Shown piece by piece: positions 2,102 through 63,518 of a stretch of 64,000 nucleotides of DNA. Location of the stretch: contig OZ242221.1 of the NCBI GenBank assembly GCA_965206845.1, forward strand, positions 992,001 through 1,056,000, in the 5' to 3' direction. The notes under the pieces are model-generated. The model was given only the letters and a program-made list of their open reading frames with translations, searched no databases and was not told the DNA's origin. A program made the position numbers and the translations under genes. Source of the stretch: Cenarchaeum sp. GTDB lineage: Archaea > Thermoproteota > Nitrososphaeria > Nitrososphaerales > Nitrosopumilaceae. The first letter of the stretch is position 1; each line of letters begins with the position of its first letter.

Positions 2102-2292
2102 AACAGTCCGCACCGCCGCGACCATTATTTCCGCCGCGCTTGCCTGTGCTGTTCCTCCAGCCACTGGCGCCGCGCCGGCATCTGGCAGGAATGGCGCGCC
2201 GGAAGGAAAGCCGGAAAATGATGAAAGCATTGTGTACTTTTGTATATAATTCCCAAGCTAAACGGTCGCAGCCGCGGATGCCCGGCCGGGCT

Positions 2293-3006
2293 TTACGGCG
2301 CCCCTATGAACTTGTGCATCTGAGGCACTATGCGAACATCCCTGTAGTGGGGCCACACCGCATCGTACAGCTCCATGAGCAGGTCAAGGCCGGGACTGCC
2401 GGCCCCGTATACCGGCTGAATGACAAAACCGGAGATGTCGCCTGCCGCGATGACGCCGAATACCTGCCCTGCCAGCTCCGCCATGTCCTCCCCGGTGGTG
2501 CGGGAGCTGACGACGACCTTGATGTACGTGTCTTTCTTTGATGTTACAGACAGCCTCAGGCACTCGAGGGCGTTCTTGACAAGATCCGGATAGTGCCCGT
2601 CATCTACAAAACCCGAGTCCCGGGTCTTGAACTCGATCTTTACCAGATCGATACTGGGCAGCACACGGGAGAATCTCGCCGAGTCAAAGCACGCCGACTC
2701 GAGGTAGACGGGTATGCCCTTTGACCTGACATACTCTGCCATCTCCGCCACCGCGTCAGGCTGCATCAGGGGATCGCCGCCGGTGAAATTCACCTTGTAG
2801 GTGTTCTGCTGCAGGTTCTGCCCGATGAGCCTGCAGGCCTCTGCCACAGGGTACTCGGTCCCGGAGTTGGACGGGAGCGCCTCTGCGGTATCGCAGTAAA
2901 AGCACGAAAACGGACACCCGGCCAGCCTGACGAACATGGTCTTTGTCCCGTACAGTATGCCCTCCCCCTCTATGGAGGTGAATATCTCAAACAGCCTTAC
3001 CTTCAA
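2293..3006 (-). CDS. queE: 7-carboxy-7-deazaguanine synthase (radical SAM)
   Basis: EIFTSIEGEG...FVRLAGCPFSCFYCDT, FTGGDPL, C-terminal PQMHK. Confidence 0.93.
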   Translation of the reverse strand: MKVRLFEIFTSIEGEGILYGTKTMFVRLAGCPFSCFYCDTAEALPSNSGTEYPVAEACRLIGQNLQQNTYKVNFTGGDPLMQPDAVAEMAEYVRSKGIPVYLESACFDSARFSRVLPSIDLVKIEFKTRDSGFVDDGHYPDLVKNALECLRLSVTSKKDTYIKVVVSSRTTGEDMAELAGQVFGVIAAGDISGFVIQPVYGAGSPGLDLLMELYDAVWPHYRDVRIVPQMHKFIGAP

Positions 3007-3149
3007 CAGTTATGTGGGCCTGTCCTGTCTATTTATTCGGCGCATCTACTCCCGGTGACGGGCCGATACCGCCGGGGCTCCACTGTGAAGCAACCTCCAA
3101 GATCGGTACAGGCCAGCCGGTTCCCGTCCCCGGGCCGCAAAAACCGGAG

Positions 3150-3356
3150 TCAGTGCATTACGGGCTCTTTTGTGTAAAAGAGGCCTGCGATGAAGAAGAC
3201 CACGCCAAGAATGCCGATCAGACTTCCCACAAACTCCAGGGTGCCGGTGAACTCGGGCTCCAGGGTAGGCCAGTAGGCTGCCATCAGCGCGCCCACCACG
3301 ATCATCGGAATTCCAACACCGGCAGTGATCGCTCTGGACGCCATGGCGTAAATCAC
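3150..3356 (-). CDS. Small two-TM membrane hypothetical protein
   Basis: 68 aa, two hydrophobic segments, AT-rich promoter-like sequence upstream. Confidence 0.7.
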   Translation of the reverse strand: MIYAMASRAITAGVGIPMIVVGALMAAYWPTLEPEFTGTLEFVGSLIGILGVVFFIAGLFYTKEPVMH

Positions 3357-3639
3357 CTGTAAAATGTATAATAGTTTTTGCGTCGTGGCGCTGCGGGGGT
3401 GTTGGGCCTGTCTGGATATTTTTGTCCACTTTGTGTAAATTTATGTGCAGGTGATGACGGATGCGGCCGAATGCAAGTCTGACCCGTGTTCGGTCCTGCC
3501 CATGGATCCGGCAATGTCTGGAAGGCGGGATCCATGGCGCAGGGCCGGATCGGCCGTCCGCCTCCGGATCCGGCCCGGGCGCGTTCGCGCCGGATCCAGA
3601 CGGTCGCACAGCCTAATGGCGTGTTGCATAATTCCTCCC

Positions 3640-3779
3640 AAGATGTGATTCGTAATTAGCACGCAGGCACATTAGAGCACGATCTTTGGCATAATCATAC
3701 GAAAGTTGCATGCTTTGGAGCACACATCTGTAAGATTATGGGCATCGAAGGCCCGATTCTTAATTGCGGATCATGTCTC
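3640..3779. mobile_element. 140-bp MITE-like repeat, family A, copy 1
   Basis: Near-identical to 16274-16413 and (inverted) 17301-17440; imperfect TIR (G/A)AGATGTGATTCGTAATTA / TAATTGCGGATCATGTCTC. Confidence 0.85.
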
Positions 3780-4381
3780 GGGACGCAGTCGTCCTGCAGC
3801 GCAAGTTCCGGCACAAGTTTGTCAACCCCGAGGGCATGCACGTCTTCTCGGTGATACAGAGCTTCAACAGGACATGCCGCAAGCTGGGACTCGTCCCCTG
3901 GATGTGCGTGGAAAAGATTGCGGAGAACCCGAACTACAACATATTCGAGGCCGGACCTGAGATGGCACGCGCGCCGGCGCCTCCGGCGGATGCGCCCGAG
4001 TCAGACACATTCTACGCGGAACAGGCCCTCGTCGCGCACCCGGCGGTCGGTGAAAGTGTAGCCGAGACGGAACGGCCCCCGGTCGGGGCACCCGCCGCAC
4101 CGCCGGATCAGTCACCTGCTACGTCCCACACGCCGGCCGGAGACAGGGCCGATACGGAAGCAGACCCGCACGGGTTCGTGCCCCCGCTGGCGGCAGGCCT
4201 GCGGCCGGGCAGCCGCGCCGCAATGACCCGCGTCCCATCTCTGCCTCGCGCCATAACCGATCCCGATCATGTGCCGTTTTACGGCAAGCCGCCGCCGGCA
4301 GTATCTGCCTGACGCTGCAAGATGACACCTGGTTGGCACGGCTAGCCGGAGGGGGACAAGTGCTTGGACCTGAGGATGTAC
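3780..4381 (+). pseudogene. IS66-like transposase C-terminal remnant with Pro/Ala-rich tail and probable element end
   Basis: RDAVVLQRKFRHKFVNPEGMHVFSVIQSFNRTCRKLGLVPW resembles the IS66 TnpC C-terminus (stop at 4312). 5' part is cut at MITE-A. End motif GGACCTGAGGATGTAC at 4366-4381. Confidence 0.65.
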
Positions 4382-4402
4382 CCTGAACAGTAACCAAAAT
4401 TC

Positions 4403-4495
4403 GTAAGCGTTCACGTCCCCTCTTGTTCCGTGCCTGTAGACAGGTCGACGTGGGCTGTAGTTAGGCGTGGATTAAGGGAGGACGTGAACACTTAC
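4403..4495. mobile_element. 93-bp IS66-type MITE (family B)
   Basis: TIR GTAAGCGTTCACGTCC / GGACGTGAACACTTAC; 8-bp direct repeat CAAAATTC at 4395-4402 and 4496-4503. Confidence 0.85.
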
Positions 4496-4531
4496 CAAAA
4501 TTCTATATTGCAATCCCATCTATCTTATGAT

Positions 4532-6169
4532 GTGGCTGCAAAAAAGGAATGGCGCGTAAAACCCAGCAAGGAGATGATACGGAGCACGTCCAATCCCCGC
4601 ATATACAAGAGCGGACAGTCCTATTACGCAGACGGAAAGGTGATATCGGCCTATATCGACGGGAACGCTCTGATGGCGGTCGTGTCGGGGGGGATGGAAT
4701 ACGACGTGATGATCATAAGTAAGGGTGACCAGTTCACTGCAAACTGCACCTGCCAGTTCAACAGTTACCTCTACTACGAAGCGTGCGAGCACACAATCGC
4801 CGTCCTGATGCACCTGACCGAGCACTTTGAGGAGATGCTGAGCGAAGCGGAATCCAGGAAGTCCACGATAGCCAACATGATCACCTTGGTGGCTCCGGGC
4901 AAGGCGCTAAAGTTTCTGGCGGATCTCATGGTGCACGACGGGGATGCACGGCAGGAGTTTGTCAAGAAGTTCAAGCTGGAGCATGTGCGTCCTATGGTAG
5001 ACCACAAGTCCGAGGTGGACCGGATGTACTATTACGCGGCAGAGTCAGACGGAAGTGTGCGCGAGGCACTGGACTTTGAGCGCTACTTTGCCAGGGCCAG
5101 GGAGAATCGGGACGGCGGCGGGGCCGCCGAGGCGACAAAGATGTACCGGGGGCTGTCAGAAGCGATATCCGGACATATGGGCACGGTGGACGACTCGAGC
5201 GGATACTACACGGACTGCTTCATAGAGGCACTGGAGAGCATGGCCGAGTCGATAGTCCGGGAGGATCTGCCGGCAGACAAAAAACGCGAGCACATTTTGT
5301 ATCTTTTTAAGAAGTTCATGGATGGGACGCCTGCAGAACTCGCCCAGCACTACCGCGGCGCTCTGGAGGCTGTGTGCATCGCAGACGATGACGCAGCGTG
5401 CCTGCGCGACATGATAAAGCCACGCCTGCGGAACGCCGGCAGTGGCAAGTCGGACAACACGACGGATCTTGTGCGCATGCAGGCCCACATTCTCGAGGGG
5501 CTGGGCCGGACAGCAGAACTCGAGACGCTTCTGGAGAAGTTCCACAGCCTGGACAGAGGGCTGTGCGTCATGTACCTTGACATGCTAAAGCACGCCGATC
5601 AGGACAAGGCCCGACAGGCGGCCCGGGATGCCACAGGTGCGTTTCCGGGCGATGTGCGTATAATGGGTGCGGCCCTGGAGCTCTATCCCAAGGCAGGTCC
5701 AGACTACGTCCCGGCGCTCAGAGATCTGTTTGCGGCAACGGGCGACTGGCGGTACTTTTTCAAGCTCGGGGAGGTGTCCACGGACTGGCATGCCGAGGTG
5801 GCAACCACTGCCAGCAACCTTTTGAGGAAGGGCGCCCCCGGCACGGCCGTCGACGCCTACCTGAAGGGGGGCATGGCCGGAGACGCCATGGATCTGCTTG
5901 AGTCGCTGGGGGATGTCGAGCTCTTCGCCGCGTACCGCACAAAGCTGGCCAAGGGCTATCCGGATAGGTACATTGCCGCGTACGGTGAGCATGCCAGGCG
6001 ATTTGCCAAGAGCAGAACCGGAAGGGATCACTACGAGCGCGTCCGCAAGCACCTCGCCAGCATAAAGGCAATTCCAGGCAGCGGCGACAGGTACGAGGGG
6101 CTGATGCGCCACATCAGGCTGGACAACCATAACAAGCGTGTCCTGCTGAAGATCATGGAGGATCTGTAG
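4532..6169 (+). CDS. SWIM zinc-finger protein with helical C-terminal region
   Basis: CTC...CEH SWIM motif (ANCTCQFNSYLYYEACEHTIAVL). The ORF-track start 4430 lies inside MITE-B, so GTG 4532 is preferred. Confidence 0.8.
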   Translation: MAAKKEWRVKPSKEMIRSTSNPRIYKSGQSYYADGKVISAYIDGNALMAVVSGGMEYDVMIISKGDQFTANCTCQFNSYLYYEACEHTIAVLMHLTEHFEEMLSEAESRKSTIANMITLVAPGKALKFLADLMVHDGDARQEFVKKFKLEHVRPMVDHKSEVDRMYYYAAESDGSVREALDFERYFARARENRDGGGAAEATKMYRGLSEAISGHMGTVDDSSGYYTDCFIEALESMAESIVREDLPADKKREHILYLFKKFMDGTPAELAQHYRGALEAVCIADDDAACLRDMIKPRLRNAGSGKSDNTTDLVRMQAHILEGLGRTAELETLLEKFHSLDRGLCVMYLDMLKHADQDKARQAARDATGAFPGDVRIMGAALELYPKAGPDYVPALRDLFAATGDWRYFFKLGEVSTDWHAEVATTASNLLRKGAPGTAVDAYLKGGMAGDAMDLLESLGDVELFAAYRTKLAKGYPDRYIAAYGEHARRFAKSRTGRDHYERVRKHLASIKAIPGSGDRYEGLMRHIRLDNHNKRVLLKIMEDL

Positions 6170-9100
6170 CGCGCGCCGGTTGCGGCTGGTCGGCCTCGTA
6201 CCCCGATGCGTTGCCGACGGCAGCCAGTCTGCCTGCCGGATCCCTTATCGCACTCGGCTTGCTGCCGCCATCACGCAGCAGGTACAGGTAGCAGTCGCCA
6301 CGGAGCGTCTTTGCCCGGAACCACTCGTTGAATGTAAACGTCACCGGTTCGTCTCCGGTTACCGACTTTGCCAGGATGTATCGAGTGGCTTCCCCCCGGC
6401 CCACAGATCTGATGTCAAAACCGCAGCCCGTCCCAGATACGTTCTCAGGACTCCTGCCGGATCTGCGCTCAAACTCCATGGATCTGTCCAGGGCGAGCCG
6501 CTTCAGGCGCGCGGCATCGGCCGGGCCGGGCAGCACCCTGGCAACGCCCACCACAGACACCCCGCCAATGCTCAAGTCCGCGTCCTGCCTCATCCGCATG
6601 CCCATGTCCCTTCTGGCCAGCCTGTACTTCCTACGGCTCTCCCTCTTGTTCCTGATGGCGAGATCCACATTGGTGCCCTTTCGCTTCTTTGTCAGCAACT
6701 CCACCATGTCGTCCCCTATCCTCTCCAGATGCGAGTCTAGCGACCGCATTCCATACTTTTGCACCAGCACTGCATGCCTGTCCCGCTCTGCAGCAAGATC
6801 CTTCGCATAGTCTGCCAGCAGCTCAGCCGACTTGGCAACTGCCATACCCTTGATCTTCTCCAGGTCCGTCTCCAGATCGTGCTCGGCGTGGCGCCTGTCA
6901 AGATCCAGCACCACCGACGGGGAGACCGGCCGGGTGCCTCCCCTCCCGTCAACAAAACAGGCGAGCATCTGCCTGCCAGCCAGTCTCTGGGATCCGTCGA
7001 ACACCTTGCCCTCGCAGAACACCAGATGGCCGTCCATCCCACCGGTCGGATCTACAAACACGGCTCCGCCCAGCGCGGCATCAGAGTACTTTTGCTCCGC
7101 CCAGTCAAGCGCCGCGTCAAACGCCGGATGCCCAAAGGTTATCAGCTCGGTTCCCGGGTTTGCCATCCTGATCCTCTTGTCAAAGGTGGCCACGGGGTAC
7201 GAGGACGGCACCGGCTCGCCGCTCCTTGCCTGCGCCATCCCGAGTATGTCCTCGGGCAGCTCGATGGATACCAGGTCGTCGTCCCCGACTATCCGGCCCC
7301 CGGCCGCATCCATTATTCTCTGGAACAGATCCCTTGTGTACTCGGGCACCAGCTGCTTCTCTCGCGCCTTCTCCCGCACGCCCTTGAGCATGGTATAGTC
7401 CATGTACTTGGTGGCCAGGCCGTCCTTCATGTAGTCGATTATGCGGTCGTTGTTCGTTGCGATGGACTCCTTCAGATCCGCGATTATGTCCGACTGCCTC
7501 CTCGCGCGGACCGTCGCGTCCAGCAGCATCTGTGCGAGGCTCTTTCCCTGGACGATCTCGCTTATGACGTCAAACACCTTGTCGCTTCCCATGGCCTCCT
7601 TTATCTCGTCTAGCTTCTCAAACAGCGTCTGCATTATCTTGCCCTCACGCGTGTCGGCGGCCACCAGGTTGAAGACGGACACCGGAAACTTTTGGCCGTA
7701 TCGGTGTACCCTGCCCATCCTCTGCTCCAGTCTGTTGGGATTCCATGGCAGGTCATAGTTTATCATCAGGTGGCAGAACTGGAGGTTGATTCCCTCGCCT
7801 GCCGCCTCGGTGGCGACCATCACGCGGGTCCTGTCACGGAAGACACTCTCGGCGTCCTTCCTCTCGTCGGCTGGCATGGCCCCGTGTATGGTGTTTACCG
7901 AGTAGCCCCATCGCCGTATGTTCTCCACCAGGTGGTCCAGCGTGTCCTTGGACTCGGTGAACACCAGTATCTTTTCCTCCGGGTGTCCCTTGTCCATCTC
8001 TTCCATGGTCTTTTTCAGCTGGCTCAATTTTGCCTCGGATCCCTTCCTGACGATCTTCTCGGCCTTTGCTATCAACCCGTCCAGGATGCCGATCTCTTCC
8101 CTGAGCTCCCTCCTGTTTTTGGCCACGGTGATCAGCTCCCATCTCTTCTCCTCGTCCCATTGGTCCTTTTCTGCCACCCCGTCCGCATAGTCGGGGGCGC
8201 CCGCCGGCATGCCCCTTTGTGCGGCATCCATCTTTAGCGCGTCGCTCTCAAGCTGCTTCAGCCTGTGCCTTCTTCTCTTGAGCGACTCTGACAGCGCAAA
8301 CGTGCTGGATGCGAACCGGCGCTGGAGGATTATGAGTGCAAACGTGATGTTGTGGCGCTTGATGGACTGGGTGGCCAGGTTGTACTGCTCGCTGATGTAC
8401 TTGGACATGGCGTTGTACAGGCTCTTTTCGGGACGCGACAGCTGCACGTCTGGCGTCTCCACACTGCGCGGTGCAAAGAGCGGCCTGCCGTCAAAGTCCT
8501 TCATGTCCTCCTTGGTGCGCCTCAGGAACAGCGGATTGTCCTGGTTCTTTATCGACTCATCCATCATTGCGTCCGTGGCAAAGTAGCCCGGCTCCAACAG
8601 GTCCAGGAGCAGCCTGAAGTTCTGGGTGTCCCCCTTGTGTGGTGTCGCGGTCAGGAACAGAATGTGCCTGCTCATTGCGGAGAGCATCTCGCCCAGCTTG
8701 TAGCGCTTGGTCTTGGCGGTGCTGCTGCCGTACGAGTACGCGCTCATCTTGTGCGCCTCGTCCACTATTATCAGGTCAAACCGTATGTCCCTCATCGAGC
8801 CCATCACGTCGTCCTGTTTTGCAAAGTCGATGGATGTAATCAGCTGGCCGCCGTCCCAGGCCCCCATTCCCTCGCTGGCTCCAAAATAACTGCGATCCAC
8901 CACCGTAAAGTCCTCATCGAGCTTGTCCCGGAGCTCCCACCTCCACTGCTCCTTCAGCTGTCCGGGAACCACTATCAGGACGCGCCGTACCTCATTTCTC
9001 ATCTTCATCTCCTTGATTACCAGCCCTGCCATGATCGTCTTTCCGGCTCCGGGATCGTGCGCCAGCATGAACCGTATCCTGGATTTTTTAAGCACATGCT

Positions 9101-9317
9101 CGTACACGGCCTCTATCTGGTGTGGCAGGGGATCCACCTTGGAGACACTCACCGCGAGGATCGGATCGTATGCGAAGGCGTACCTGAACCTTTTGGCTTC
9201 CAGCGCCAGAAACGCTTGCCCGGAATCGGCAGGCTTGTGCATCGGGATCGTGGAGCTCTTGCGGCGCCCCCCTGCACTCTTGGCACGGCTTATTCCTGCC
9301 TCACCTGCACTGGGCAC
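6153..9317 (-). CDS. SNF2-family helicase with C-terminal DUF3883-like domain
   Basis: DPLPHQ, PGAGKT, DEAH, TATPH, ATEAAGEGINLQ, EQRMGRVHRYGQ; C-terminal GFDIRS...RYILAK. The ORF-track start 9398 lies in MITE-C; true start uncertain (GTG 9317 or ATG 9242). Confidence 0.85.
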   Translation of the reverse strand: MPSAGEAGISRAKSAGGRRKSSTIPMHKPADSGQAFLALEAKRFRYAFAYDPILAVSVSKVDPLPHQIEAVYEHVLKKSRIRFMLAHDPGAGKTIMAGLVIKEMKMRNEVRRVLIVVPGQLKEQWRWELRDKLDEDFTVVDRSYFGASEGMGAWDGGQLITSIDFAKQDDVMGSMRDIRFDLIIVDEAHKMSAYSYGSSTAKTKRYKLGEMLSAMSRHILFLTATPHKGDTQNFRLLLDLLEPGYFATDAMMDESIKNQDNPLFLRRTKEDMKDFDGRPLFAPRSVETPDVQLSRPEKSLYNAMSKYISEQYNLATQSIKRHNITFALIILQRRFASSTFALSESLKRRRHRLKQLESDALKMDAAQRGMPAGAPDYADGVAEKDQWDEEKRWELITVAKNRRELREEIGILDGLIAKAEKIVRKGSEAKLSQLKKTMEEMDKGHPEEKILVFTESKDTLDHLVENIRRWGYSVNTIHGAMPADERKDAESVFRDRTRVMVATEAAGEGINLQFCHLMINYDLPWNPNRLEQRMGRVHRYGQKFPVSVFNLVAADTREGKIMQTLFEKLDEIKEAMGSDKVFDVISEIVQGKSLAQMLLDATVRARRQSDIIADLKESIATNNDRIIDYMKDGLATKYMDYTMLKGVREKAREKQLVPEYTRDLFQRIMDAAGGRIVGDDDLVSIELPEDILGMAQARSGEPVPSSYPVATFDKRIRMANPGTELITFGHPAFDAALDWAEQKYSDAALGGAVFVDPTGGMDGHLVFCEGKVFDGSQRLAGRQMLACFVDGRGGTRPVSPSVVLDLDRRHAEHDLETDLEKIKGMAVAKSAELLADYAKDLAAERDRHAVLVQKYGMRSLDSHLERIGDDMVELLTKKRKGTNVDLAIRNKRESRRKYRLARRDMGMRMRQDADLSIGGVSVVGVARVLPGPADAARLKRLALDRSMEFERRSGRSPENVSGTGCGFDIRSVGRGEATRYILAKSVTGDEPVTFTFNEWFRAKTLRGDCYLYLLRDGGSKPSAIRDPAGRLAAVGNASGYEADQPQPARATDPP

Positions 9318-9373
9318 ATCATTCTGGCAATGGGTCTCCTGATTGCCAATTAAAGTATAGCGTCTGCTAGTCG

Positions 9374-9464
9374 GTACATACTCACGCCCATGATGCACCT
9401 AGTCGTAAAAACACGCGGCAGTGTGCAAAACTATGCCTAGCTTTGATCCGGACCTGAGGAGTAC
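9374..9464. mobile_element. ~91-bp MITE, family C (diverged copy)
   Basis: GTAC termini; alignable by eye to the reverse complement of 28730-28821 (shared ctag..aaaa.acgcg.ca.t.tgcaaaac.atgcctagc core); no TSD seen. Confidence 0.65.
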
Positions 9465-9516
9465 CGTCGCAGCCTAAACAAGATTTATAACCAAACCGAC
9501 GAGTATGAGAGCTTGA

Positions 9517-15920: not shown

Positions 15921-15994
15921 GGGTCTATGGCTCAGCCAGGTAGAGCACCGGACTCTTAATCCGGCTGTCGGGGGTTCGAATCCCTCTAGACCCG
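15921..15994 (+). tRNA. tRNA-Lys(CTT)
   Basis: GGGTCTA/TAGACCC acceptor, anticodon arm CCGGA-CT-CTT-AA-TCCGG, GGTTCGAATCC. Confidence 0.95.
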
Positions 15995-16017
15995 CCCACC
16001 ATACGCCAACTAAAATA

Positions 16018-16273
16018 GGGAATTATATACTTCGGTAGGCATAACCGGGGAATTACATACAAAAGTAACCAAAATTCCTGCCTTTTTGGCGCTCCCTTTC
16101 GCGCGCCGTCCTTGTTAGATGCCGGCGCGTCATCCGTGGCGGCCGTAATCGCACGGACAAGCATAACGGGATGGATGGCCATGACAGTGCGGACTGTCCG
16201 CATGGTCTGCATGGTATTGTCGCGGCGCTTTTATGCGATGTGAAATATTGCATGTGGTAATGAAATCAATCAT
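16018..16273 (+). mobile_element. Truncated left arm of the TnpB-TIR element family (two stacked TIRs, promoter, first 5 codons)
   Basis: GGGAATTATATACTTCGGT (E2 type) at 16018, GGGAATTACATACAAAAGTA (E1 type) at 16048, conserved promoter cassette, ATGAAATCAATCATG (MKSIM) at 16260 cut at MITE-A. Confidence 0.85.
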
Positions 16274-16413
16274 GAGATGTGATTCGTAATTAGCACGCAG
16301 GCATATTAGAGCACGATCTTTGGCATAATCATACGAAAGTTGCATGCTTTGGAGCACACATCTGTAAGATTATGGGCATCGAAGGCCCGATTCTTAATTG
16401 CGGATCATGTCTC
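16274..16413. mobile_element. 140-bp MITE family A, copy 2
   Basis: Near-identical to 3640-3779. Confidence 0.85.
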
Positions 16414-17200
16414 TGAAGCCGAATAGTGCCTTTTCACACAGGATCAAGGGGAAATCACTGCAGGCGCTCGGGGACCACCGGGAGGCGGTAGCGGGCCTTG
16501 ATGAGTCGATAAGGCTGGATCCTAGGAACGCCCCTGCGCACGCGGCCAAGGGGAAATCGCTGCAGGAGCTCGGGAAGTACCGGGAGGCGGTAGCGTGCCT
16601 TGATGTAGCAGTTGGGCTGAACCCGGAATACTCCTTTGCGCATGCGACCAAGGGAATATCGCTGCAGGCTCTCGGAAGACGCCGGGAGGCGGTAGCGTGC
16701 TTTGATGAGACACTAAGGCTGGATCCGAAGAATGCCTTTGCATACGGAACCAAGGGAAGATCGCTACAGGAGCTTGGGAGATACGAGGAGTCGTTGACGT
16801 GCCTTGACAGGGCGGTAGATCTGAGCCCGAACTACCCCTTTGCGCACGTGGCCAAGGGAATATCACTGCAGGCGCTCGGAAGACACCGGGAGGCGATGGC
16901 GTGCCTTGATGAGGCAATTGGGCTGAAGCCGGACTACTTTGCGCATGCGACCAAGGAGAGACTGCTGCAGGGGCTCGGGAAGACGCCGGAAGGCGATAGC
17001 GTGCCCTGACGGGTCGATAAGGCTGGATCCGGCGAATGCCCATGCATGTGGGGCCAAAGTGCGTGTCGCTGTAGAGGCCTGGAAGCACCGGGAGGCGATA
17101 GCGTGCCTTGGTGAGGCAATGGCGCCTGATCCATCTTGTGCCTTTGTGCATGGGGCGTGCGAAGGCGGGTTTTCCGGCCTTGGCCCCGGAACAAGGCACT
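16414..17200 (+). pseudogene. Tetratricopeptide-repeat protein fragment (5' truncated, 3' frameshifted)
   Basis: About six 34-aa TPR units (AHATKGISLQALGR.REAVACLD....L.P) as ~102-bp tandem repeats to the stop at 17009; degenerate TPRs continue in another frame. Confidence 0.8.
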
Positions 17201-17300: not shown

Positions 17301-17440
17301 GAGATGTGATCCGCAATTAAGAATCGAACCTTCGATGCCCATAATCTTACAGATATGTGTTCCAAAGCATGCAACTTTCGTATGATTATGCCAAAGATCG
17401 TGCTCTAATGTGCTTGCGTGCTAATTACGAATCACATCTC
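17301..17440. mobile_element. 140-bp MITE family A, copy 3 (inverted)
   Basis: Reverse-complement match to copies 1 and 2; ends GAGATGTGAT...ATCACATCTC. Confidence 0.85.
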
Positions 17441-17632
17441 TGGACAGGATCATCAGCGAGGCCGCGCACGGGCACGGCAAGCCTGCTTGTCTCAGAATAT
17501 TACAGGACGTTTGCAGACATGTGCAATGCAATCATCACGTACTACAGAACCGTGAGGTTTAAGCTGGACATAGTCAGATACGCCAGCGGAAATCCAAAAT
17601 TATTCTGTACAAAACTTATGATCGGCGCTATA
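17441..17632 (+). pseudogene. IS630-family transposase C-terminal remnant and right end
   Basis: LLVSEYYRTFADMCNAIITYYRTVRFKLDI resembles thaumarchaeal IS630 C-termini (from recall); ends ...GATCGGCGCTATA. Confidence 0.55.
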
Positions 17633-53298: not shown

Positions 53299-53330
53299 GG
53301 TATCCCTAAAGGAGGCTGGCTATATTTGCA

Positions 53331-54242: not shown

Positions 54243-54319
54243 GCCGTATCCAGGCAGCCGGCTTTAATTTACTTTGGCGAGTGTATCCAATCCGCCTCTG
54301 GCGCGTCACAGAGAAACCC

Positions 54320-54811: not shown

Positions 54812-54812
54812 G

Positions 54813-55580: not shown

Positions 55581-55689
55581 GCCACCTCTCGGCCTGCCTG
55601 TCTATTTAACTATCGTTTGTTTTCCTACAAAACCACCGGTGTGTGGTCGGAAAGCGATTATATATGATTATTTTGATTGCTAAACAGTA

Positions 55690-57354
55690 ATGGCTCTAAT
55701 TCAGATTGCGAATCAATCTATAAAGAAGGTAGGCAAGAGATCTACCATCCGGTTTACCCAGAGCATATGCCCCGACTGTAACATGATCCTGGATGCAGAG
55801 GTCTTTGAGAGGGACGGCATGGTATACATGACAAAGACATGCCCCACCCACGGCGAGTGTGAGGAGCTGTACTTTGGCTCGTACGAGATGTACAACAAGT
55901 TCAGCACGTACTGGATGGATGGCAAGGGTGCCCACGCTCCCAACGTTATGATTGACAAGTGCTCGTGTCCCAACAACTGCGGACTCTGTTCAAACCACCT
56001 GTCCCACAGCGGACTGGCCAACATGATTGTTACCAATAGATGCGACCTTACCTGCTGGTACTGCTTCTTTTATGTGAAGAAGGGCCTGGAGGGGGCGTAC
56101 ATGTACGAACCGTCGCACGACCAGGTGCGCGCAATGATGAAGACCCTCAGGGCCGAGAGGCCGATACCGGGCAACTCGATGCAGATCACCGGCGGCGAGC
56201 CCATGCTCCGGGAGGACATCGACACCGTAATCAAGATAATGAAGGAGGAGGGTGTCGACCACATCCAGATGAACACCAACGGTATCAGGCACGCAATGGA
56301 TCCGGAGGCTGCCAGGGATGTAAGGCTTGCAGGGTGCAACAACCTCTATCTCAGCTTTGACGGCGTTACCGCCAGGACCAACCCGAAGAACCACTGGGAG
56401 ATTCCACATGCTCTTGACAGCTGCCGCAAGACCGGAACCACCGTGGTCTTTGTCCCCACAGTGATAAAGTCAATAAACGATCACGAGCTGGGCGGAATCA
56501 TCAGGTACGCACAGAAGAACATGGACATCGTTCACGCAGTCAACTTCCAGCCCGTGTCCCTCACAGGCAGAATGGGCAAGCAAGAGCGTGAAAAGTACAG
56601 AATCACCATACCAGACTGCATACAGAGAATCGAGGAGCAGACCAACGGCGAGGTCACCATAGACGACTGGTTCCCGGTTCCCAGCTGCATGCCACTGACA
56701 AACGTCATCGAGGCGTTCTCCAGCAAGCCAAAGTACGAACTCTCGATCCACTTTGCATGCGGCGCAGGCACGTACATCTTTGAGGATGCCGACACCAAGA
56801 AGTTTGTCCCACTTACCAAATTCTGCGACATCCAGGGAATGCTGGAGCTCTTTGAGGACAAGTCAGAGGAGATTCGCTCCGGCAAGAACAAGTACTTTAC
56901 AATGCTTGAGGTGGTGAGAAAACTGAAGAGTTTCGTGGACACCAAAAAACAGCCTGCCGGCCTTGACTTGGCAAAGATGTTTGGCAACATACTCATGAAG
57001 AGATCCTTTGACTCTGTGGGCTCTTGGCACGTAAAGGGCCTGTTCCTTGGCATGATGCACTTCCAGGACAAGTACAACGAGGACTTGGAGCGGCTGCAGA
57101 GATGCGACATACACTACCTCACACCGGATCTCAGAATCGTTCCGTTCTGTGCCTTCAACGTGATTCCAGAGTGGTACCGTGACAGAATCCAGAAAAAGTA
57201 CTCCATTACCGTGGAGGAATGGGAGGAGAGAGAGGGCGTAAAGCTGGAAGACGGCCTGTACAGGGGCCTTATGAGACGCGGTGCCGGCGACGAGCTAGCT
57301 GCAGGCTGTGCCAAAAGCCAGATGTTCCACGAGGCATCACAGTCACTGATGTAG
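55690..57354 (+). CDS. tes: Radical SAM tetraether lipid synthase (Tes/GDGT-MAS)
   Basis: N-terminal CPDC...CPTHG, CPNNCGLC..H, CDLTCWYC radical SAM motif, C-terminal RC.IHY...PFC. Confidence 0.88.
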   Translation: MALIQIANQSIKKVGKRSTIRFTQSICPDCNMILDAEVFERDGMVYMTKTCPTHGECEELYFGSYEMYNKFSTYWMDGKGAHAPNVMIDKCSCPNNCGLCSNHLSHSGLANMIVTNRCDLTCWYCFFYVKKGLEGAYMYEPSHDQVRAMMKTLRAERPIPGNSMQITGGEPMLREDIDTVIKIMKEEGVDHIQMNTNGIRHAMDPEAARDVRLAGCNNLYLSFDGVTARTNPKNHWEIPHALDSCRKTGTTVVFVPTVIKSINDHELGGIIRYAQKNMDIVHAVNFQPVSLTGRMGKQEREKYRITIPDCIQRIEEQTNGEVTIDDWFPVPSCMPLTNVIEAFSSKPKYELSIHFACGAGTYIFEDADTKKFVPLTKFCDIQGMLELFEDKSEEIRSGKNKYFTMLEVVRKLKSFVDTKKQPAGLDLAKMFGNILMKRSFDSVGSWHVKGLFLGMMHFQDKYNEDLERLQRCDIHYLTPDLRIVPFCAFNVIPEWYRDRIQKKYSITVEEWEEREGVKLEDGLYRGLMRRGAGDELAAGCAKSQMFHEASQSLM

Positions 57355-57605
57355 ACCAGAACACTGCGTCTTCAGATTTTGATGGATCGGTTTGTGTTTG
57401 GGCGCCATCGGCCTGTGTACCCGGAAAGGATGCGGTTCCTGCGTCCTGTGCATGGATGTCCCCGCACTGGCACCCGTGCCATGCCGGTTTTGCGCTCTGG
57501 ACGAGGCAGCCCATTGGTTAGAGGGCTCACCAATGCGGGCCAAACGCCATAAAATTCATCCCGCCGGGCTCCGGGGAGCCGCCTGCTGGCCGATCCGTAA
57601 AAAAA

Positions 57606-59551
57606 GGGAATTATATACTTCGGTTACAGAACCGTTGCCTTTTTCTGGTGCTCTGTCGATCCCTCCCACTCGTGGCTCTTGCGTGATGTCTGTGGAGCGG
57701 ACTGGGCAGCCCTGTCATGGAATCCCGCGCCAGGCAGGCGACAAGGATGGCTATGACGGTATGGACAGTCTGCATGGTCTGCATACTAATGACAGTGTTG
57801 CCGCGGCGCTTTTATGCGGTGTGGCATATTGCATGCGGTAATGAAATCAATCGATATGGTGGCAACGGCGCTGGTAACGGTACCGGCGCCAGAAGCGAAA
57901 GCGAAACCGGCAAGGGAGGACACGGTGATCCGCACAATAAAGGTGGACTTTGGCCAGTCCGTGGCGCTGTCAGAGCTCATATCGCGCCTCATTGTGCAGC
58001 AGCGGTGGGCATACAACGTGGCCGTAGAGGAGATGCTGAATGACCCGACAGTAAGCAAATTTGATCTCAACAACAAGCTCACCGCGTGGAGGCAGAAGCA
58101 CGACTGGCTTGACGGCAACGTCTCTGTGCAACGGGCCGGGCTTGCCCAGGGAAGGGATGCCGTGCTGAAGTTTCTGGAATCAAACACTACAAAGCGCGCC
58201 CGCAGGATCATGTGGAAAGACAAATCCAAGAAATATAGAGAAAATAAAACGGAAAAAAATGACAAGAGGCTCAGGGAAGACGGAGATGGCGCCGGCGCAA
58301 ACCTGTCCCTGACCCCATGGAGTGGCAGAAAGAACAGGTGGAGCCACGAAAGCGACCTGTACAGGGCAAGGGGCGACAGGCAGGCGCTGTGTGTGTTTGG
58401 AAAGCCCGTGCAAAAGGACAACAACAGGATCATGCTACCGGGCATCGGCACAGTAGGCGTGCACGGCGAGATGATGGAATGGGACATGCGATCCTTCCAG
58501 CTTGTGGAGACAACCAAAAGGATCACCAGGCGCACCAGGGACCGCGACCGGACATACCGCCTCCACGTCAATGTCCGCATCAGAAAGCCCCGACCGGTGG
58601 AGTGTGATATAGTCCGTGGTGTCGACATGGGGATTGTCCACAACGCGACAACTGTGGACCTTGACACAGGCTACACGGAGTTCCACGACATGCCCAAGGA
58701 CTGCAGGAGGTCAAAGAACGATGAGGTATCGCGGATGCAGGCGGAGCTCTCAAGGAAGCGTGGAGGCAGCGGCAACCGGCGCATCAGGCAGAATGGTAAA
58801 GGCGACTGTCCCGGCAATGCCAGCATCAACGGCGGCACCAATGGGGACGGGAACGGCAGTAACAGCAAGCCGGGCAAATCGGGCAAGCAATGCAAGACCG
58901 TCGGGCCGAACCGCATCAACAGAAAGGCCAAGCGCGACAGGCCAAGGAAGCCCAAATCACGAAGTTACAAGGATCTGCAAAGGAAGATACAAAAAAAGCG
59001 GGAAAAGGTCGCCAACCGCCAGACGAACTGGGAGCGCCACGCGTCAAAGAAGATAGCCGACGGCGCCGGCACGGTGGCCATCGAGGATCTGAATATCAAA
59101 AACATGACGGCCAGGGCCAAAGGCAGTGGAAGCTCCGCCAAGAACGGCCTCAACCGCGAGATGGCATACTCCAGGCCGGGGACGTTCCAAAGGCGGATCG
59201 AGGGCGCATGCGCGAACGCCGGCGTGAAGGTAATCTCCGTTTATCCGGGGGGCACGAGCACCACATGCTACATGTGCGGCCGCAGGGACAAAGGCTCCCG
59301 CGTGTCGCAGGCCGAGTTCATATGCACGAATCACAAATGCGAATGCCACATCAACGCGGACGTCAATGCCGCGTATAACATTGCCGCCAGGGCGGCGGCA
59401 GGGCGGCGGGGAACGTCGTCCAAAGGCGCGAGATTCCAGGCCGGGATTGCTCCCGGACGCTCCGCAAACAACACGCAAGAGCCACGCGTGGGAGGGATCG
59501 CCGGAGCGCCAGAAAAAGGCAACGGTTCTGTAACCGAAGTATATAATTCCC
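57606..59551 (+). mobile_element. TIR-bounded, TnpB-carrying non-autonomous transposon (copy E2)
   Basis: TIR perfect for 43 bp (GGGAATTATATACTTCGGTTACAGAACCGTTGCCTTTTTCTGG), extending imperfectly to ~95-100 bp; flanks TAAAAAAA / TAAATAGG (no exact TSD). Confidence 0.9.
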
Positions 59552-59715
59552 TAAATAGGCTTCAAAACAATAGATCAGCAAGGTGTCCATGGGAGAAGAC
59601 TATCCGGAGTATGGTGAGGAGATCGGGTCCGCAGAGGTGCCAGAGGCAGACCCCTACAATTCCGACGTATTTGCAGAACCGGGACAGGCTCGGCACGATC
59701 CGGATATGGATCTGA
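57841..59715 (+). CDS. tnpB: TnpB/Cas12f-like RNA-guided endonuclease, 624 aa (reads through the element end)
   Basis: RGVDMG, AIEDL, TSTTCYMCG...CTNHKC, NADVNAAYNI; start MKSID homologous to E1/E3. Confidence 0.88.
   Translation: MKSIDMVATALVTVPAPEAKAKPAREDTVIRTIKVDFGQSVALSELISRLIVQQRWAYNVAVEEMLNDPTVSKFDLNNKLTAWRQKHDWLDGNVSVQRAGLAQGRDAVLKFLESNTTKRARRIMWKDKSKKYRENKTEKNDKRLREDGDGAGANLSLTPWSGRKNRWSHESDLYRARGDRQALCVFGKPVQKDNNRIMLPGIGTVGVHGEMMEWDMRSFQLVETTKRITRRTRDRDRTYRLHVNVRIRKPRPVECDIVRGVDMGIVHNATTVDLDTGYTEFHDMPKDCRRSKNDEVSRMQAELSRKRGGSGNRRIRQNGKGDCPGNASINGGTNGDGNGSNSKPGKSGKQCKTVGPNRINRKAKRDRPRKPKSRSYKDLQRKIQKKREKVANRQTNWERHASKKIADGAGTVAIEDLNIKNMTARAKGSGSSAKNGLNREMAYSRPGTFQRRIEGACANAGVKVISVYPGGTSTTCYMCGRRDKGSRVSQAEFICTNHKCECHINADVNAAYNIAARAAAGRRGTSSKGARFQAGIAPGRSANNTQEPRVGGIAGAPEKGNGSVTEVYNSLNRLQNNRSARCPWEKTIRSMVRRSGPQRCQRQTPTIPTYLQNRDRLGTIRIWI
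59381..59551 (+). ncRNA. Putative omegaRNA scaffold (E2)
   Basis: Hairpins at 59402-59420 and 59441-59456 show compensatory changes relative to E1/E3. Confidence 0.6.
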
Positions 59716-60014
59716 TCGAGCAGCTGAACCCCGTAGAGACCAAGGAGGGTGAAAAGATCGGCAAGAGCCAGTGCAAAAAAATCTGCTATGGGTTCAGGGC
59801 CATCAAGCCGCCCCGGCGTGGGCGCTACTCGTCGGGCCAGGTAAGGTGCATGATCTGTGACATCTTCATAAGCCGGGAGGGGTGCGCCGACAAGAGCGGG
59901 AACACCGCAACCCCGGAGGCCATGGGGCTGTTCTGCAAGTGCTGCGGGTACAGGGTGCGTACCAAGCCCAGGGCAAGCATATACAAGCAAAAGTTCAACA
60001 GGGATATCCAATAG
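59589..60014 (+). CDS. Cys-rich Zn-binding hypothetical protein
   Basis: CKKIC, CMIC, CKCCG.RVRTKPR. Confidence 0.75.
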   Translation: MGEDYPEYGEEIGSAEVPEADPYNSDVFAEPGQARHDPDMDLIEQLNPVETKEGEKIGKSQCKKICYGFRAIKPPRRGRYSSGQVRCMICDIFISREGCADKSGNTATPEAMGLFCKCCGYRVRTKPRASIYKQKFNRDIQ

Positions 60015-60083
60015 GGGGATACCCATTGCGGCAAAAAACCGCCGAACAAAAAACTTAACTTGAGACGGATCGTACCCTCTGAC

Positions 60084-60530
60084 GTGAAGCTGACCAGCCA
60101 GACGTTTCAAGACGGATCCGAGATTCCCAGGAGGTGCGGCTACAAGACAAAAAACGTCAGCCCCGCCCTGCATGTCAGCGACATCCCGCCGGGCACGAGA
60201 TCGCTTGCGCTGGTGATGGATGATCCTGACGCCATGAAGCCTGCAGGCAAGGTCTGGGTGCACTGGCTCGTGTGGGGCATAGGCCCGGCAGCCGCCGGGG
60301 TTGCCGAAGGCTCCGCCTTTGACGGCGCCGTGGAGGGGAAGACCGACTTTGGCAGTACGGGATACGGCGGACCGGCCCCACCGGACGGGAGGCACACATA
60401 CGTCTTCAAAATCTATGCGCTGGACGCCAGGCTGAGCCTTGCTGGCGGGGCCAGAAAGCCGGAGCTTGAGGGCGCCATCAAGGGACATGTCATCGGGCAG
60501 GCGGTCCTGAAGGGAACCTTTGCCCCCTGA
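60084..60530 (+). CDS. YbhB/YbcL (PEBP) family protein
   Basis: NVSP.L, DDPDA, WVHW, YGGPAPP, H.Y.F..YALD. Confidence 0.92.
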   Translation: MKLTSQTFQDGSEIPRRCGYKTKNVSPALHVSDIPPGTRSLALVMDDPDAMKPAGKVWVHWLVWGIGPAAAGVAEGSAFDGAVEGKTDFGSTGYGGPAPPDGRHTYVFKIYALDARLSLAGGARKPELEGAIKGHVIGQAVLKGTFAP

Positions 60531-60712
60531 CTGCGATCCGCCGGGCTCTCGCTGCGCGCCCCCCGCACACGGCAGCCCCATGCCAAAAAACTCAATTAGG
60601 AACGTGGCGGGGTTAGGGCGCGGGCATTGATGAGCATATCCCTCTGATTGGTGATGTGGATCTTGAGTTCTGAGCCTGCTGATTTTTATGGCAGACCGCG
60701 CATGCGGCAGGT

Positions 60713-61132
60713 GTGAAATCGCTGACACGGTACCTCAGATACGAGACAAAGACCCGCAGGGAGTTCGTCAACATAACGCCGGAGGTCGAGGCACTGGTCA
60801 GGGAGAGCGGGATCCGGGAGGGGCTCTGCCTGGTCAACGCGATGCACATCACTGCCAGCGTCTTCATCAACGATGACGAGGGCGGGCTCCACCGCGATTA
60901 TGAGCAGTGGCTTGAGGGGCTCGCCCCGCACGAGCCCACAGACGCGTACCTGCACAACCGGACCGGCGAGGACAACGCGGACGCCCACCTGAAGCGGCAG
61001 GTCATGGGCAGGGAGGTCGTCGTGGCGGTTACGGGCGGCGCGCTGGACTTCGGCCCGTGGGAGCAGATCTTCTACGGTGAGTTTGACGGAAGGAGATCCA
61101 AGCGCGTGCTGGTGAAGATAATCGGCGAGTGA
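60713..61132 (+). CDS. yjbQ: YjbQ/UPF0047 family protein
   Basis: [28 protein letters not shown]. Confidence 0.92.
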
Positions 61133-61133
61133 C

Positions 61134-61298
61134 CTATCCAAAGTCCACGTCGCGCTTCTGGCTCTGCCCCTCGTTCTTCCTGGCTGCCGCGCGAAACTTG
61201 TCGCTGTGGTTTTGTGGCCCGTGGCCGCACTTTACGCAGGCAATGAGGTACCCGTTGGTGTTCTTCTGGTATGTCTCGCAACCGCAAAAGCAGGCCAT
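61134..61298 (-). CDS. Small Cys-rich hypothetical protein (54 aa)
   Basis: Below the ORF-track cutoff; MACFCGC...CVKCGHGPQNH; ATATAT box ~25 nt upstream. Confidence 0.6.
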   Translation of the reverse strand: MACFCGCETYQKNTNGYLIACVKCGHGPQNHSDKFRAAARKNEGQSQKRDVDFG

Positions 61299-61338
61299 GT
61301 GATCTGCTGGAGTGCCGGTTGATATATCTCTTGAGAAA

Positions 61339-61519
61339 GGGAATTATATACATGAGTGTACAGTACCCATGCCTTTTGCTGGCGCTCTTGCATTGCCTCC
61401 CACGCTTGGCTCTCGCGTGTTGTTTGCGGAACGCGCGGGAGCAATCCCGCGCTGGCTTCTCGCGCCTTCAGACGACGATCCCCGCCGCCCTGCCGCCAAG
61501 GCTTTCGCCTTGGAAGCAA
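61339..61519 (-). ncRNA. Putative omegaRNA scaffold (E3)
   Basis: CCAAGGC-GAAA-GCCTTGG and GCGCGGGA-TTGC-TCCCGCGC hairpins; conserved with E1/E2. Confidence 0.6.
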
Positions 61520-63113
61520 TGTTATGCGCCGCGTTTATGTCGGCGTTGACGTCATTGTAACAGTTGTCATTGGTGCAGCGGAACCTGCCCTGCGATGTGC
61601 GGGATTCCTTGTCCTTGCGCCCACAAGCGCTGCATGTTATGCTGGTGCCCTTGGGGTCCACCATAATTACAGTCACTCCGGCGTTCGCGCACGCCTGCCC
61701 GATCTGCTTTTGGAACGTTCCGGGCCGGGAATAGGCCATCTCCCTGTTTAGCCCCGTCTTGGCGGATCTTCCCTTGCCTTTGACCTTGGCGGTCATGTTG
61801 TTTAGGTTGAGATCCTCCATGGCCACGGTTCTGGCGCCATCGGCTATCTTCTTTGACGCGTGCCTTTCCCAGTTGGTCTGGCGGTTGGCTATCTTCTCGC
61901 GCTTCTTGCGGATCTTCCTTTGGAGTTCCTTATAGCTGCGGGACTTTGGCTTCCTTGTCTTGTTTTTGTTGTGGCCTCTGGTGTTGTTGGTGTTGCTGCT
62001 GCTGCCGCTTCTCGTGTTGTTGGTGCTGCTGCTGCCGCCGCTGCCGTTGGTGCCGTTCCCGAAGTCCGCGTCCTTGCTCCCGCCACCAGAGTCTTCATTG
62101 GTGTCCTGCCTGATCCTGCGGTTGCCCCTCCCGCCGCGCTTCTGAGAGAGCTCGGAGTACATCCTGGACAGGTCGTCGTCCTTGGAGCGCCTGCAGTCCT
62201 TTGGGAGGTCGTGAAATTTATGATGGCCGGTGCCGAGGTCTGCCGTGGCGGCGCCGTGGACTATGCCCATGTCCACGCCCCTTACGACCGCGGATTCAGA
62301 CGGCTCCGGGGCCTTGGTTTCGACCTGGATGTGGAGGCGGTACGTCCTGTTATGGTTCTCCGTGCGCTTCGTGGCCCTCTTCGTCGTCTCCACCAATTGG
62401 AATGATCGCATGTCCAATTTCTCCACGTCGCCGCGCACTCTCACGGTGCCGATTCCCGGTAGCATCACCATGTTGTCGCCTTTGTATACTGGCTTCTCAA
62501 ACACCGAGAGTGACCGCTGCTCCCCTTTCCTCTTGAACAGGTCATTGGTGTGGCTCCATTCGTTCCTCTTGTTGCTCCACTTGTTTGACGGCAGGTTTGA
62601 CGCGGTGTAGATGTCGATGTCCGGTATCCCCTCCTTTTCCCGGTCCCGTCTGGCCAGGTGTTTCCACAGGGACTTGTTGCTGCGCTTTTTCCCGTTGGAT
62701 GCCATGAACTTCTTTACGGCGTCCATGCCCAGCAGGAGGCCGGCCCTCTGCACCATGCAGCTGCAGGCCTCATTGCGTCCGGCGGCCCGCGCCTCCTTGT
62801 CATGGACGAGCCACGCCTTTGAGTTTCTCCATTTCGTTAGCATGTTGTTGAGGTCAAACTTGGTTGTCCTCGGGTCTTTCAGCTTCCCGCGCACGGCCAT
62901 GTTGAAGGCCCACCTCTGCTGGTCCATGTGGCGGGATATGAGATCCGACAGCTCCGCCGACTGGTCAAAGTCCACCTTTATGTTGCGGACCATTATGCCT
63001 TCCATTGAGCGTTTTGACCACTTTTTTGGAGCCGGCTCGGTCGCGGCAGCGGTTGCATCTGCTACCGCCGGCTCCGTTGCTGTTATTGCCGTTGCCGTCA
63101 TGATGGGTTTCAT
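61344..63113 (-). CDS. tnpB: TnpB/Cas12f-like RNA-guided endonuclease, 589 aa
   Basis: RGVDMG, AMEDL, TSITCSACG...CTNDNC, NADINAAHNI; stop inside the TIR. Confidence 0.9.
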   Translation of the reverse strand: MKPIMTATAITATEPAVADATAAATEPAPKKWSKRSMEGIMVRNIKVDFDQSAELSDLISRHMDQQRWAFNMAVRGKLKDPRTTKFDLNNMLTKWRNSKAWLVHDKEARAAGRNEACSCMVQRAGLLLGMDAVKKFMASNGKKRSNKSLWKHLARRDREKEGIPDIDIYTASNLPSNKWSNKRNEWSHTNDLFKRKGEQRSLSVFEKPVYKGDNMVMLPGIGTVRVRGDVEKLDMRSFQLVETTKRATKRTENHNRTYRLHIQVETKAPEPSESAVVRGVDMGIVHGAATADLGTGHHKFHDLPKDCRRSKDDDLSRMYSELSQKRGGRGNRRIRQDTNEDSGGGSKDADFGNGTNGSGGSSSTNNTRSGSSSNTNNTRGHNKNKTRKPKSRSYKELQRKIRKKREKIANRQTNWERHASKKIADGARTVAMEDLNLNNMTAKVKGKGRSAKTGLNREMAYSRPGTFQKQIGQACANAGVTVIMVDPKGTSITCSACGRKDKESRTSQGRFRCTNDNCYNDVNADINAAHNIASKAKALAAGRRGSSSEGARSQRGIAPARSANNTREPSVGGNARAPAKGMGTVHSCI

Positions 63114-63518
63114 TACCGCATGCAAATGCCAAATATGTATAAAAACACCGTGGCAATACCATGCAGACCATGCGGACCGTCCGTGCCGTCACGGCCATCA
63201 GGGAGTGGCAGGTTGCAGGCGCCCAGATGGGAGTGGATACTGTGTGGAGAGACCCGAACAAAAACCCTATCCGAGGGCAGCGTATGGCCATGTTTGCCGT
63301 ATATGATTCCCCGCGCCAGGGACGGAAAAACATGAACGGGACAACCCTGCCGGCCATACTAGAGGGGCATTCCGATCTCTTTGACAACAGAAACAGGACA
63401 TATCGCTTGGATCAACAGGCACTGCGGTTTGCATGCAGACGTTCACTCAACTATATAATCCCCTTGAGAAACGGCCCGCCCGCCACAAGTTCATATCCTG
63501 CGTCGGCGTACCCGATCC

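Follow-up and report, generated by a model that had tools for sequence, protein, structure and literature searches.

The window analysed here, a stretch of 64,000 nucleotides (nt) of a Cenarchaeum sp. contig, contains three mobile elements, E1, E2 and E3, with common ends GGGAATTATATA...TATATAATTCCC and one long open reading frame (ORF) each, a tnpB gene; a fourth, E4, is a truncated remnant. The genome, one contig of 1.65 Mb with 57% G+C, holds 15 full tnpB elements. Our subject is a single G found directly 5' of these elements, and what it may tell about the target requirement of the encoded nuclease.

The coordinates are collected in Table 1. Read in tnpB orientation, with slashes separating flank, target-site duplication (TSD) and element, the junctions are ...GACCG/TTTAGCTT/GGGAATTATATA...TATATAATTCCC/TTTAGCTT/CAAATATTAGTG for E1, ...ATCCG/TAAAAAAA/GGGAATTATATA...TATATAATTCCC/TAAATAGG/CTTCAAAACAAT for E2, and ...GGCCG/TTTCTCAA/GGGGATTATATA...TATATAATTCCC/TTTCTCAA/GAGATATATC for E3. 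The TSDs of E1 and E3 are perfect over 8 base pairs (bp), and the two copies of E2 agree at only five of the eight positions. An earlier note on this DNA had described the junctions as CCG, an 8-mer starting with T, and the element, which is exactly how the sequence reads in all three; it went on to propose that CCG is the transposon-adjacent motif (TAM) of the nuclease.

Table 1. Features of the tnpB elements in the window (aa, amino acids; IR, inverted repeat)
Feature	Coordinates	Strand	Remarks
E1, tnpB-only element with IR ends	385..2254	-	1870 bp; ends GGGAATTATATACAAAAGTACAC...; 45-nt arms 80% complementary
E1 tnpB ORF	390..2042	-	550 aa; Pfam Cas12f1-like_TNB 2e-15; stop codon within right IR
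E1 putative omega-RNA scaffold	385..575	-	last ~190 nt, to ...TTCCC; 5' limit approximate
E1 predicted guide template	365..384	-	right TSD copy 377-384 plus 12 nt of flank; predicted from position past the conserved 3' end
E1 left TSD copy	2255..2262	-	TTTAGCTT; 8/8 identical to 377-384
E1 CCG	2263..2265	-	of the three bases, the G at 2263 (+ strand: C) alone is common genome-wide
E2, tnpB-only element	57606..59551	+	1946 bp; 95-nt IRs, 93% complementary
E2 CCG	57595..57597	+	G at 57597
E2 left TSD copy	57598..57605	+	TAAAAAAA; 5/8 positions match right copy TAAATAGG
E2 tnpB ORF	57814-59715	+	extends beyond right element end; motifs intact
E2 predicted guide template	59552..59571	+	right TSD copy plus flank; predicted as for E1
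E3, tnpB-only element	61339..63463	-	2125 bp; tnpB ORF 61344-63125
E3 predicted guide template	61319..61338	-	right TSD copy 61331-61338 (TTTCTCAA) plus flank; predicted as for E1
E3 left TSD copy and CCG	63464..63474	-	TSD copy 63464-63471, CCG 63472-63474; G at 63472
E4, truncated nested remnant	16018..~16271	+	two left-end repeats (16018, 16048), a promoter-like stretch and the start of tnpB, followed by unrelated repeats

TnpB genes in an IS1595-type shell

The ORFs of E1, E2 and E3 all score above the cut-off of the Pfam family Cas12f1-like_TNB (51.6-57.1 bits against 26.3); among the three, only E2 also exceeds that of OrfB_IS605, and E1 reaches 122 bits with the NCBIfam model guided_TnpB, whose cut-off is 100. 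Pattern matching finds the motifs VDMG, A[MI]EDL and NAD[IV]NAA (VDMG, AMEDL and NADINAA in E1) and both cysteine pairs in all three, at the positions expected for the RuvC D/E/D residues and the CxxC...CxxC zinc finger; we take the three motifs to hold the catalytic residues, an assignment made from knowledge of the family and not from a structure. The tnpB ORF of E2 reads 55 codons through the right end, since in this copy the stop codon that the repeat normally supplies is not in frame. The left end of this element (57606-57700) repeats the right end (59458-59551) in inverted orientation over 95 nt, the last hairpin of the putative omega-RNA included.

In each of the three elements tnpB is the sole ORF with a family match, and no transposase gene of their own is carried: they are therefore non-autonomous. 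Throughout the genome the tnpB elements have inverted repeats of 24-95 nt and 8-bp TSDs, the latter perfect in 12 of 15, and because of these two features they are not of the IS200/IS605 type. Membership in the tnpB-only IS1341 group of that family is thus ruled out, the family being taken as defined in a 2026 review (PMC13565253).

The 12-nt repeat core GGGAATTATATA recurs unchanged at the ends of elements that carry an IS1595 transposase in two related genomes, G226 and G176. The siblings that encode such a transposase (L070, L073, L082, L083, L086, L134) combine the same core with 8-bp TSDs, a length typical of the IS1595 family, and their transposases match Pfam PF12762 and NCBIfam transpos_IS1595. 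To judge from these sequences, tnpB is carried here in a non-autonomous shell of IS1595 type.

A 13-nt core of the repeat is present in 35 of 401 searched genomes of the class and multi-copy in two genera of the same family; it was listed fully for five genomes, and 27 paired elements and 53 single ends were retrieved. Relatives' elements of 1.4-1.6 kb contain tnpB only (445-454 aa), those of 2.0-7 kb an IS1595 transposase, usually together with a DNA methylase-HNH fusion, and the TSD is 8 bp long in all element types. Close TnpB homologues were sought in 40 relatives, where only distant matches appeared, in four genomes; these cover parts of the protein and reach no more than 47% identity, the stronger ones having 36-40%.

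The present genome has one full IS1595-family transposase gene, at C1:27527-28453, with a diverged left end: an element-end match at 20 of 26 positions lies 62 nt upstream, and only about three unexplained matches of that strength occur genome-wide. A right end for this gene was looked for in the genome and not found. At C1:1467226 a canonical element end is followed, 63-69 nt further in, by a truncated IS1595 gene. We also considered the 2151-bp element e870565 as an autonomous partner and rejected it: its 342-aa ORF belongs to an unrelated DDE_Tnp_1 insertion sequence with inverted repeats of its own. This 1.2-kb insertion sequence (C1:870717-871928, outside the window, ends GGGGTTGGTGCGTAATTCT) took the place of the 5' half of tnpB, and its transposase has seven copies in the genome with 94-100% protein identity.

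Other cargoes of the shell were seen in G226 and G176. A fused N6/N4 DNA methylase-HNH endonuclease gene (278-454 aa) is the usual cargo of the transposase-carrying siblings L070, L073, L082 and L086, and in L084 it stands alone in the shell; it is a second nuclease type in the same shell, and its HNH part weakly resembles the IscB/Cas9 HNH (NCBIfam). A cargo-less element of 274-372 bp with the same ends stands at the same flank in two species of one genus (L092 in G226 and L132 in G176), and is therefore an old, vertically inherited insertion.

A single G on one side of the insertions

With each element read in the direction of its tnpB, we call motif position the base that immediately precedes the left 8-bp TSD on its 5' side. 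All 15 full elements of this genome have a G there (binomial p = 9e-9 at a flank G frequency of 0.29). Position -2 is C in four, G in six and T in five copies, and related genomes have A there as well; at position -3 the bases are mixed. Twelve copies have T as first TSD base and three have C, and the base after the right TSD is unbiased. Among remnants of elements, a G is found at 976525, at 938659 and at the inner end of E4, and an A at the outer end of E4.

The check that the earlier note had suggested, a comparison of the 5' flanks of all genomic copies, thus preserves part of its observation: the G is present in all copies and the preference for T as next base holds, but CCG precedes the left TSD in three of 15 elements only, which are the three window copies. 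That CCG as such is the TAM has become very improbable: E1, E2 and E3 all have it, and the empty E3 allele of run X14, described below, reads CCG followed by the target, but the genome-wide flanks, variable at -2 and -3, already contradict it. We accordingly rejected CCG as the common motif. The earlier observation was real and over-read: what the copies have in common is G, then usually T.

In the related Nitrosopumilaceae genomes G226, G143, G176 and G102 we identified both ends of 19 and 18 further tnpB elements, which brings the total to 52. The G is found in 16 of the 19 and 12 of the 18, or 28 of 37 together (binomial p = 2e-11 at a flank G frequency of 0.23), and in 43 of all 52. Six cargo-less elements (L076, L081, L092, L130, L132 and, in this genome, 1178387-1178755) were left out of the counts, their orientation not being assignable. 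We count the insertions as separate events because their flanks all differ, although the genomes themselves are kin. Chance or base composition is a negligible explanation. It could appeal to a genome with 57% G+C and to an original observation that rested on three sites; it is already refuted by the two binomial values and by the mirror position and the transposase control, both at background.

The mirror position is the base after the right TSD, where the complementary C is found in 11 of 52 elements: the signal is one-sided. This bears out the earlier note, which had described an orientation-specific signal 5' of the left TSD, and it led us to reject a palindromic target preference. Upstream, between -24 and -10, no further conserved position is consistent across genomes; a T at -11 in 20 of 32 copies from AT-rich genomes compares with one in 15 here.

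The nine elements without G are unevenly distributed. A quick IQ-TREE search places three of them (A, T, T) in a long-branch TnpB clade and two (A, A) in another, so that two separate clades account for five of the nine cases, and presence or absence of the G tracks the TnpB phylogeny. The others are L080, which has a truncated tnpB and a perfect TSD, and three elements with decayed TSDs, L090 and L107 (full-length tnpB) and L119 (partial). When the two G-less clades are set aside, the G is present in 33 of 34 elements whose TSDs match at seven or eight positions.

The siblings that carry an IS1595 transposase, with the same or a related repeat core, provide the control. They number 23: L082, and 22 others that remain once L166, whose end is dubious, and seven loci with no recognisable end are left out. 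A G is found at their transposase-proximal end in six of 23 and at the far end in two of 10; the difference from tnpB elements is significant both for all elements (Fisher p = 4e-6) and for the intact subset (p = 1e-8). The earlier note had named, as an outcome that would refute it, tnpB-less elements of the same repeats sharing the motif; six in 23 is not such a sharing, and the comparison speaks for a link to TnpB. The TSDs are AT-rich, and T is their first base in 30 of 47 tnpB elements against three of 23 transposase-carrying ones (p = 9e-5). The G signal is therefore far beyond chance, one-sided, tied to the tnpB cargo and specific to certain TnpB clades.

Could the bias be set at integration, without the nuclease? 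In the chemistry of DDE transposition, the step from G to T is where the 3'-OH of the right end would join the target. A transposase or host factor that treats the two ends differently, through subterminal sequences or transcription at the right end, might thus prefer right-end strand transfer at G^T. The AT-rich TSDs indicate that the transposase does have target preferences, and several copies in the genome have two ends that cease to agree at position 13 (GTTAAGTGAAC on the left versus CATGAGTGTAC on the right). However, in many other copies (E2, L079, L088 and others) the two repeats are identical or nearly so over 26-95 nt, so that the terminal repeats alone cannot let a transposase tell the ends apart, and the G still stands on the side upstream of tnpB. 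Moreover, transposase-carrying siblings with the same core lack the G at either end, and the G follows the TnpB clade, not the shared 12-nt core. Because of these three observations the bias points to TnpB and not to the transposase, and we regard a pure integration bias as unlikely.

Putative RNA scaffold, predicted guide and a candidate one-base TAM

We aligned the last 260 nt of the 15 genome copies. Conservation is high over roughly the last 190 nt and ends exactly after ...TTCCC; beyond this point each sequence is unique. RNAalifold finds 53 pairs in these 3' ends, 11 of them with compensatory changes; some of the pairs form a terminal hairpin, in which the subterminal portion of the inverted repeat makes up the 3' arm. 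This is the place and shape expected of an omega-RNA scaffold, and it supports a structured RNA. Since the structured, conserved part stops at ...TTCCC, the guide would start with the right TSD copy, as the earlier note had predicted; the geometry on which it relied is upheld by the alignment. In an RNA run (X17, contigs), one contig leads from an E3-like right end into a different flank; ends of transcription are not readable from contigs, and DNA carry-over is possible.

With the guide in this register, the empty site reads G + TSD + flank, and the right junction of the occupied allele reads C + TSD + flank, the C always being the last base of ...TTCCC. At the left junction of the occupied allele, the predicted guide matches over the 8 nt of the TSD only. 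The arrangement proposed earlier for self-avoidance is thus present in the sequence: the occupied allele has a C where the empty one has a G.

Natural empty alleles exist for E3. Contigs of runs X9, X10 and X14, from three studies, join window position 61338 to 63474, skipping the element and keeping one TSD copy; upstream they carry one 4-nt repeat unit more than the window does. In X14 the junction reads CCG, one TSD copy and the flank, which is the empty site that the earlier note had reconstructed as CCG + full target; in X9 and X10 it reads CCA. The G (43 of 52 elements; empty allele in X14) has the geometry of a TAM: in the empty allele it lies directly 5' of the predicted target, and the right junction of the occupied allele does not have it. 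E3 is polymorphic among sponge-associated populations. For E2, contigs of X10 and X14 extend from the flank through the left junction, which these runs therefore contain.

A genome of the same genus, G001, has an empty site at E1, where one TSD-like copy and then the same base are found, and lacks e1188043 at the syntenic site. Its counterparts of the E2, E3, e411159 and e514372 sites have lost synteny or have their two flanks on separate contigs. With an identity of 70-78%, the divergence of G001 is too great for a base-level reading of most intergenic sites.

Pairwise DNA identity among the 15 genome copies is no higher than 70-84%, although the TSDs of 12 are perfect. Old lineages of tnpB elements that still move by cut-and-paste are suggested by this, and not a recent burst; such a history fits selection on persistence at a site rather than bursts of copy number. 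The combination of low identity and perfect TSDs is unusual for insertion sequences, which typically occur as near-identical bursts.

From these observations we infer how the nuclease may work. It is probable that the G is a minimal TAM of this TnpB, that the guide starts with the TSD, and that the element's own ...CCC end avoids self-cleavage. E1, E2 and E3 would be non-autonomous cut-and-paste elements on an IS1595-family shell, with an intact tnpB and a putative omega-RNA scaffold ending at the right terminus. Their guide would be read from the right TSD copy and the flank behind it, so that an unoccupied or precisely repaired site presents N-G, the TSD and the flank. The TAM of the lineage would then be the single base G, perhaps with T preferred as first target base, and so short a motif would suit an element that a DDE transposase places into variable, AT-rich 8-mers. 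Once the site is occupied, the element's own C would precede the full target and the G-bearing left junction would offer an 8-nt match only, so that no self-cutting is expected.

The observed bias could then arise by retention. For copies that landed 3' of a G in the right orientation, the empty site would be cut again and restored from a sister copy, and such copies would persist and multiply; copies landing elsewhere would be lost, which would leave the G bias. The wider reading is a plausible, if more tentative one: an archaeal TnpB lineage may have cut its TAM down to a single G in the service of an IS1595 cut-and-paste element, with the nuclease deciding which insertions survive, in a source-sink form of transposition, and with a near-PAM-less (PAM, protospacer-adjacent motif) miniature nuclease as the outcome.

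Several points weigh against a one-base TAM. It is unusually short: the TAMs named for TnpB in the review (PMC13565253) have 4-5 nt, namely TTAC, TTGAT and TTTAA. For Fanzor elements that have terminal inverted repeats (TIRs) and TSDs, it is reported that the right TSD belongs to the RNA scaffold and not to the guide (PMC10711439), and in a Fanzor-like register the G would not adjoin the target here. Nine of the 52 elements lack the G, L080 with its perfect TSD among them, and the two G-less TnpB clades, five elements in the same shell, show no obvious alternative motif. The A at the motif position of the empty E3 alleles in X9 and X10 fits an escape from the TAM and, equally, simple divergence between strains. 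The two transposase remnants of this genome both have a G at the transposase-proximal end (2/2). Finally, a survival filter that leaves 33 of 34 would require frequent excision and efficient homing in these archaea.

In another conceivable role of TnpB, the protein, bound to the right end or to the transposase, would read the G as a TAM at the insertion step and steer site and orientation, with no filter afterwards. Near-invariance (33/34) follows more easily from a mechanistic requirement than from survival, and the G lies directly at the integration site. However, the elements contain neither a fusion nor a conserved partner gene, tnpB being the only family-matched ORF, and TAM-adjacent insertion without use of the guide would be a new activity; we know of no precedent for a non-CRISPR TnpB directing a DDE transposase, though no search for one was made. 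We think this role improbable, slightly more so than the integration bias discussed above, and keep to the G as a TAM read on the empty site.

The remnant E4 and its surroundings complete the picture of the window. E4 lies directly 3' of the apparent 3' end of a tRNA gene (GGTTCGAATCC...CCA; region 15960-16050 of the window). Its two ends, 30 nt apart, amount to one element end inserted into another: the motif position is A at the outer and G at the inner one, and the TSD-like 8-mer of the inner end, CATAACCG, is similar to the TSDs of e1332002 and e1188043. A repeat of 139-145 nt is present in three copies (window 3641-3779, 16275-16413 and 17301-17444) with 93-99% identity, one of them inverted, and copies of it flank a tandem array of 102-nt units at 16413-17159.

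Significance and comparison with known systems

The role of TnpB has been established for elements of the IS200/IS605 and IS607 types, whose excision is seamless, and its benefit to a DDE element with variable targets is treated as an open issue in the 2026 review (PMC13565253). Natural insertion sites offer a concrete and testable answer: a motif of one base, oriented with tnpB, absent from the transposase-carrying siblings and specific to clades. If the single-G TAM is true, these nucleases of 450-600 aa would have far looser targeting than TnpBs with TAMs of 4-5 nt, which is of practical interest for genome editing. More generally, insertion-site logos split by cargo gene can expose the specificity of a nuclease without experiment.

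Literature searches that paired TnpB with Nitrosopumil- returned no paper, and for TnpB with IS1595 and DDE nothing relevant, judged by titles and the opening parts of abstracts. The DDE families named for TnpB are IS630 (PMC10691335) and ISL2, IS630 and IS1031 (PMC13565253), IS1595 not being among them in the parts available, and neither the main-text passages searched in the former nor the available parts of the latter give a TAM or an insertion-site bias for DDE-linked TnpBs.

The elements described here resemble the IS200/IS605 systems (ISDra2 and IS608 type), in which the TAM is the insertion motif, in several respects: a TnpB with RuvC and zinc-finger motifs, a conserved structured RNA that shares sequence with the 3' end of tnpB and stops at the boundary of the element, a fixed motif 5' of the left end with the predicted target beyond the right end, and the same proposed logic of cutting the empty site. 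They differ from them in having no Y1 TnpA and no fixed insertion motif of 4-5 nt; the candidate TAM is a single base, and the predicted guide opens with the 8 nt of the duplicated target. IS200/IS605 elements, on their side, are described as having neither terminal inverted repeats nor TSDs (PMC13565253), and the elements here have both.

The DDE-linked TnpB branches (DDE-1 to DDE-6) and the solo TnpBs with matching ends reported by Altae-Tran et al. 2023 (PMC10691335) are close in architecture: as here, tnpB is enclosed by inverted terminal repeats that elements with a DDE transposase also have, and its 3' end is less than 250 bp from the element end, and the solo forms are presumably mobilised in trans, a further likeness. 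Fanzor1 and Fanzor2* (Yoon et al. 2023, PMC10711439; PMC13565253) likewise are RNA-guided nucleases of the TnpB family carried as cargo of cut-and-paste transposons with TIRs and TSDs, in eukaryotic hosts where ours are archaeal. Their TIR contributes to the RNA scaffold, much as the last predicted hairpin is formed here by the subterminal repeat. The TSD of Fanzors is reported to become scaffold sequence, and their 5' TSD to be read as belonging to the TAM; the TSD here is a variable 8-mer, and therefore neither a fixed part of a scaffold nor a fixed TAM, and the conserved base lies outside it.

The siblings that encode an IS1595 transposase have the same 12-nt repeat core and the same 8-bp TSDs as the window elements. 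In the latter, tnpB and a structured RNA replace the transposase, and only the tnpB elements have the one-sided bias in their flanks.

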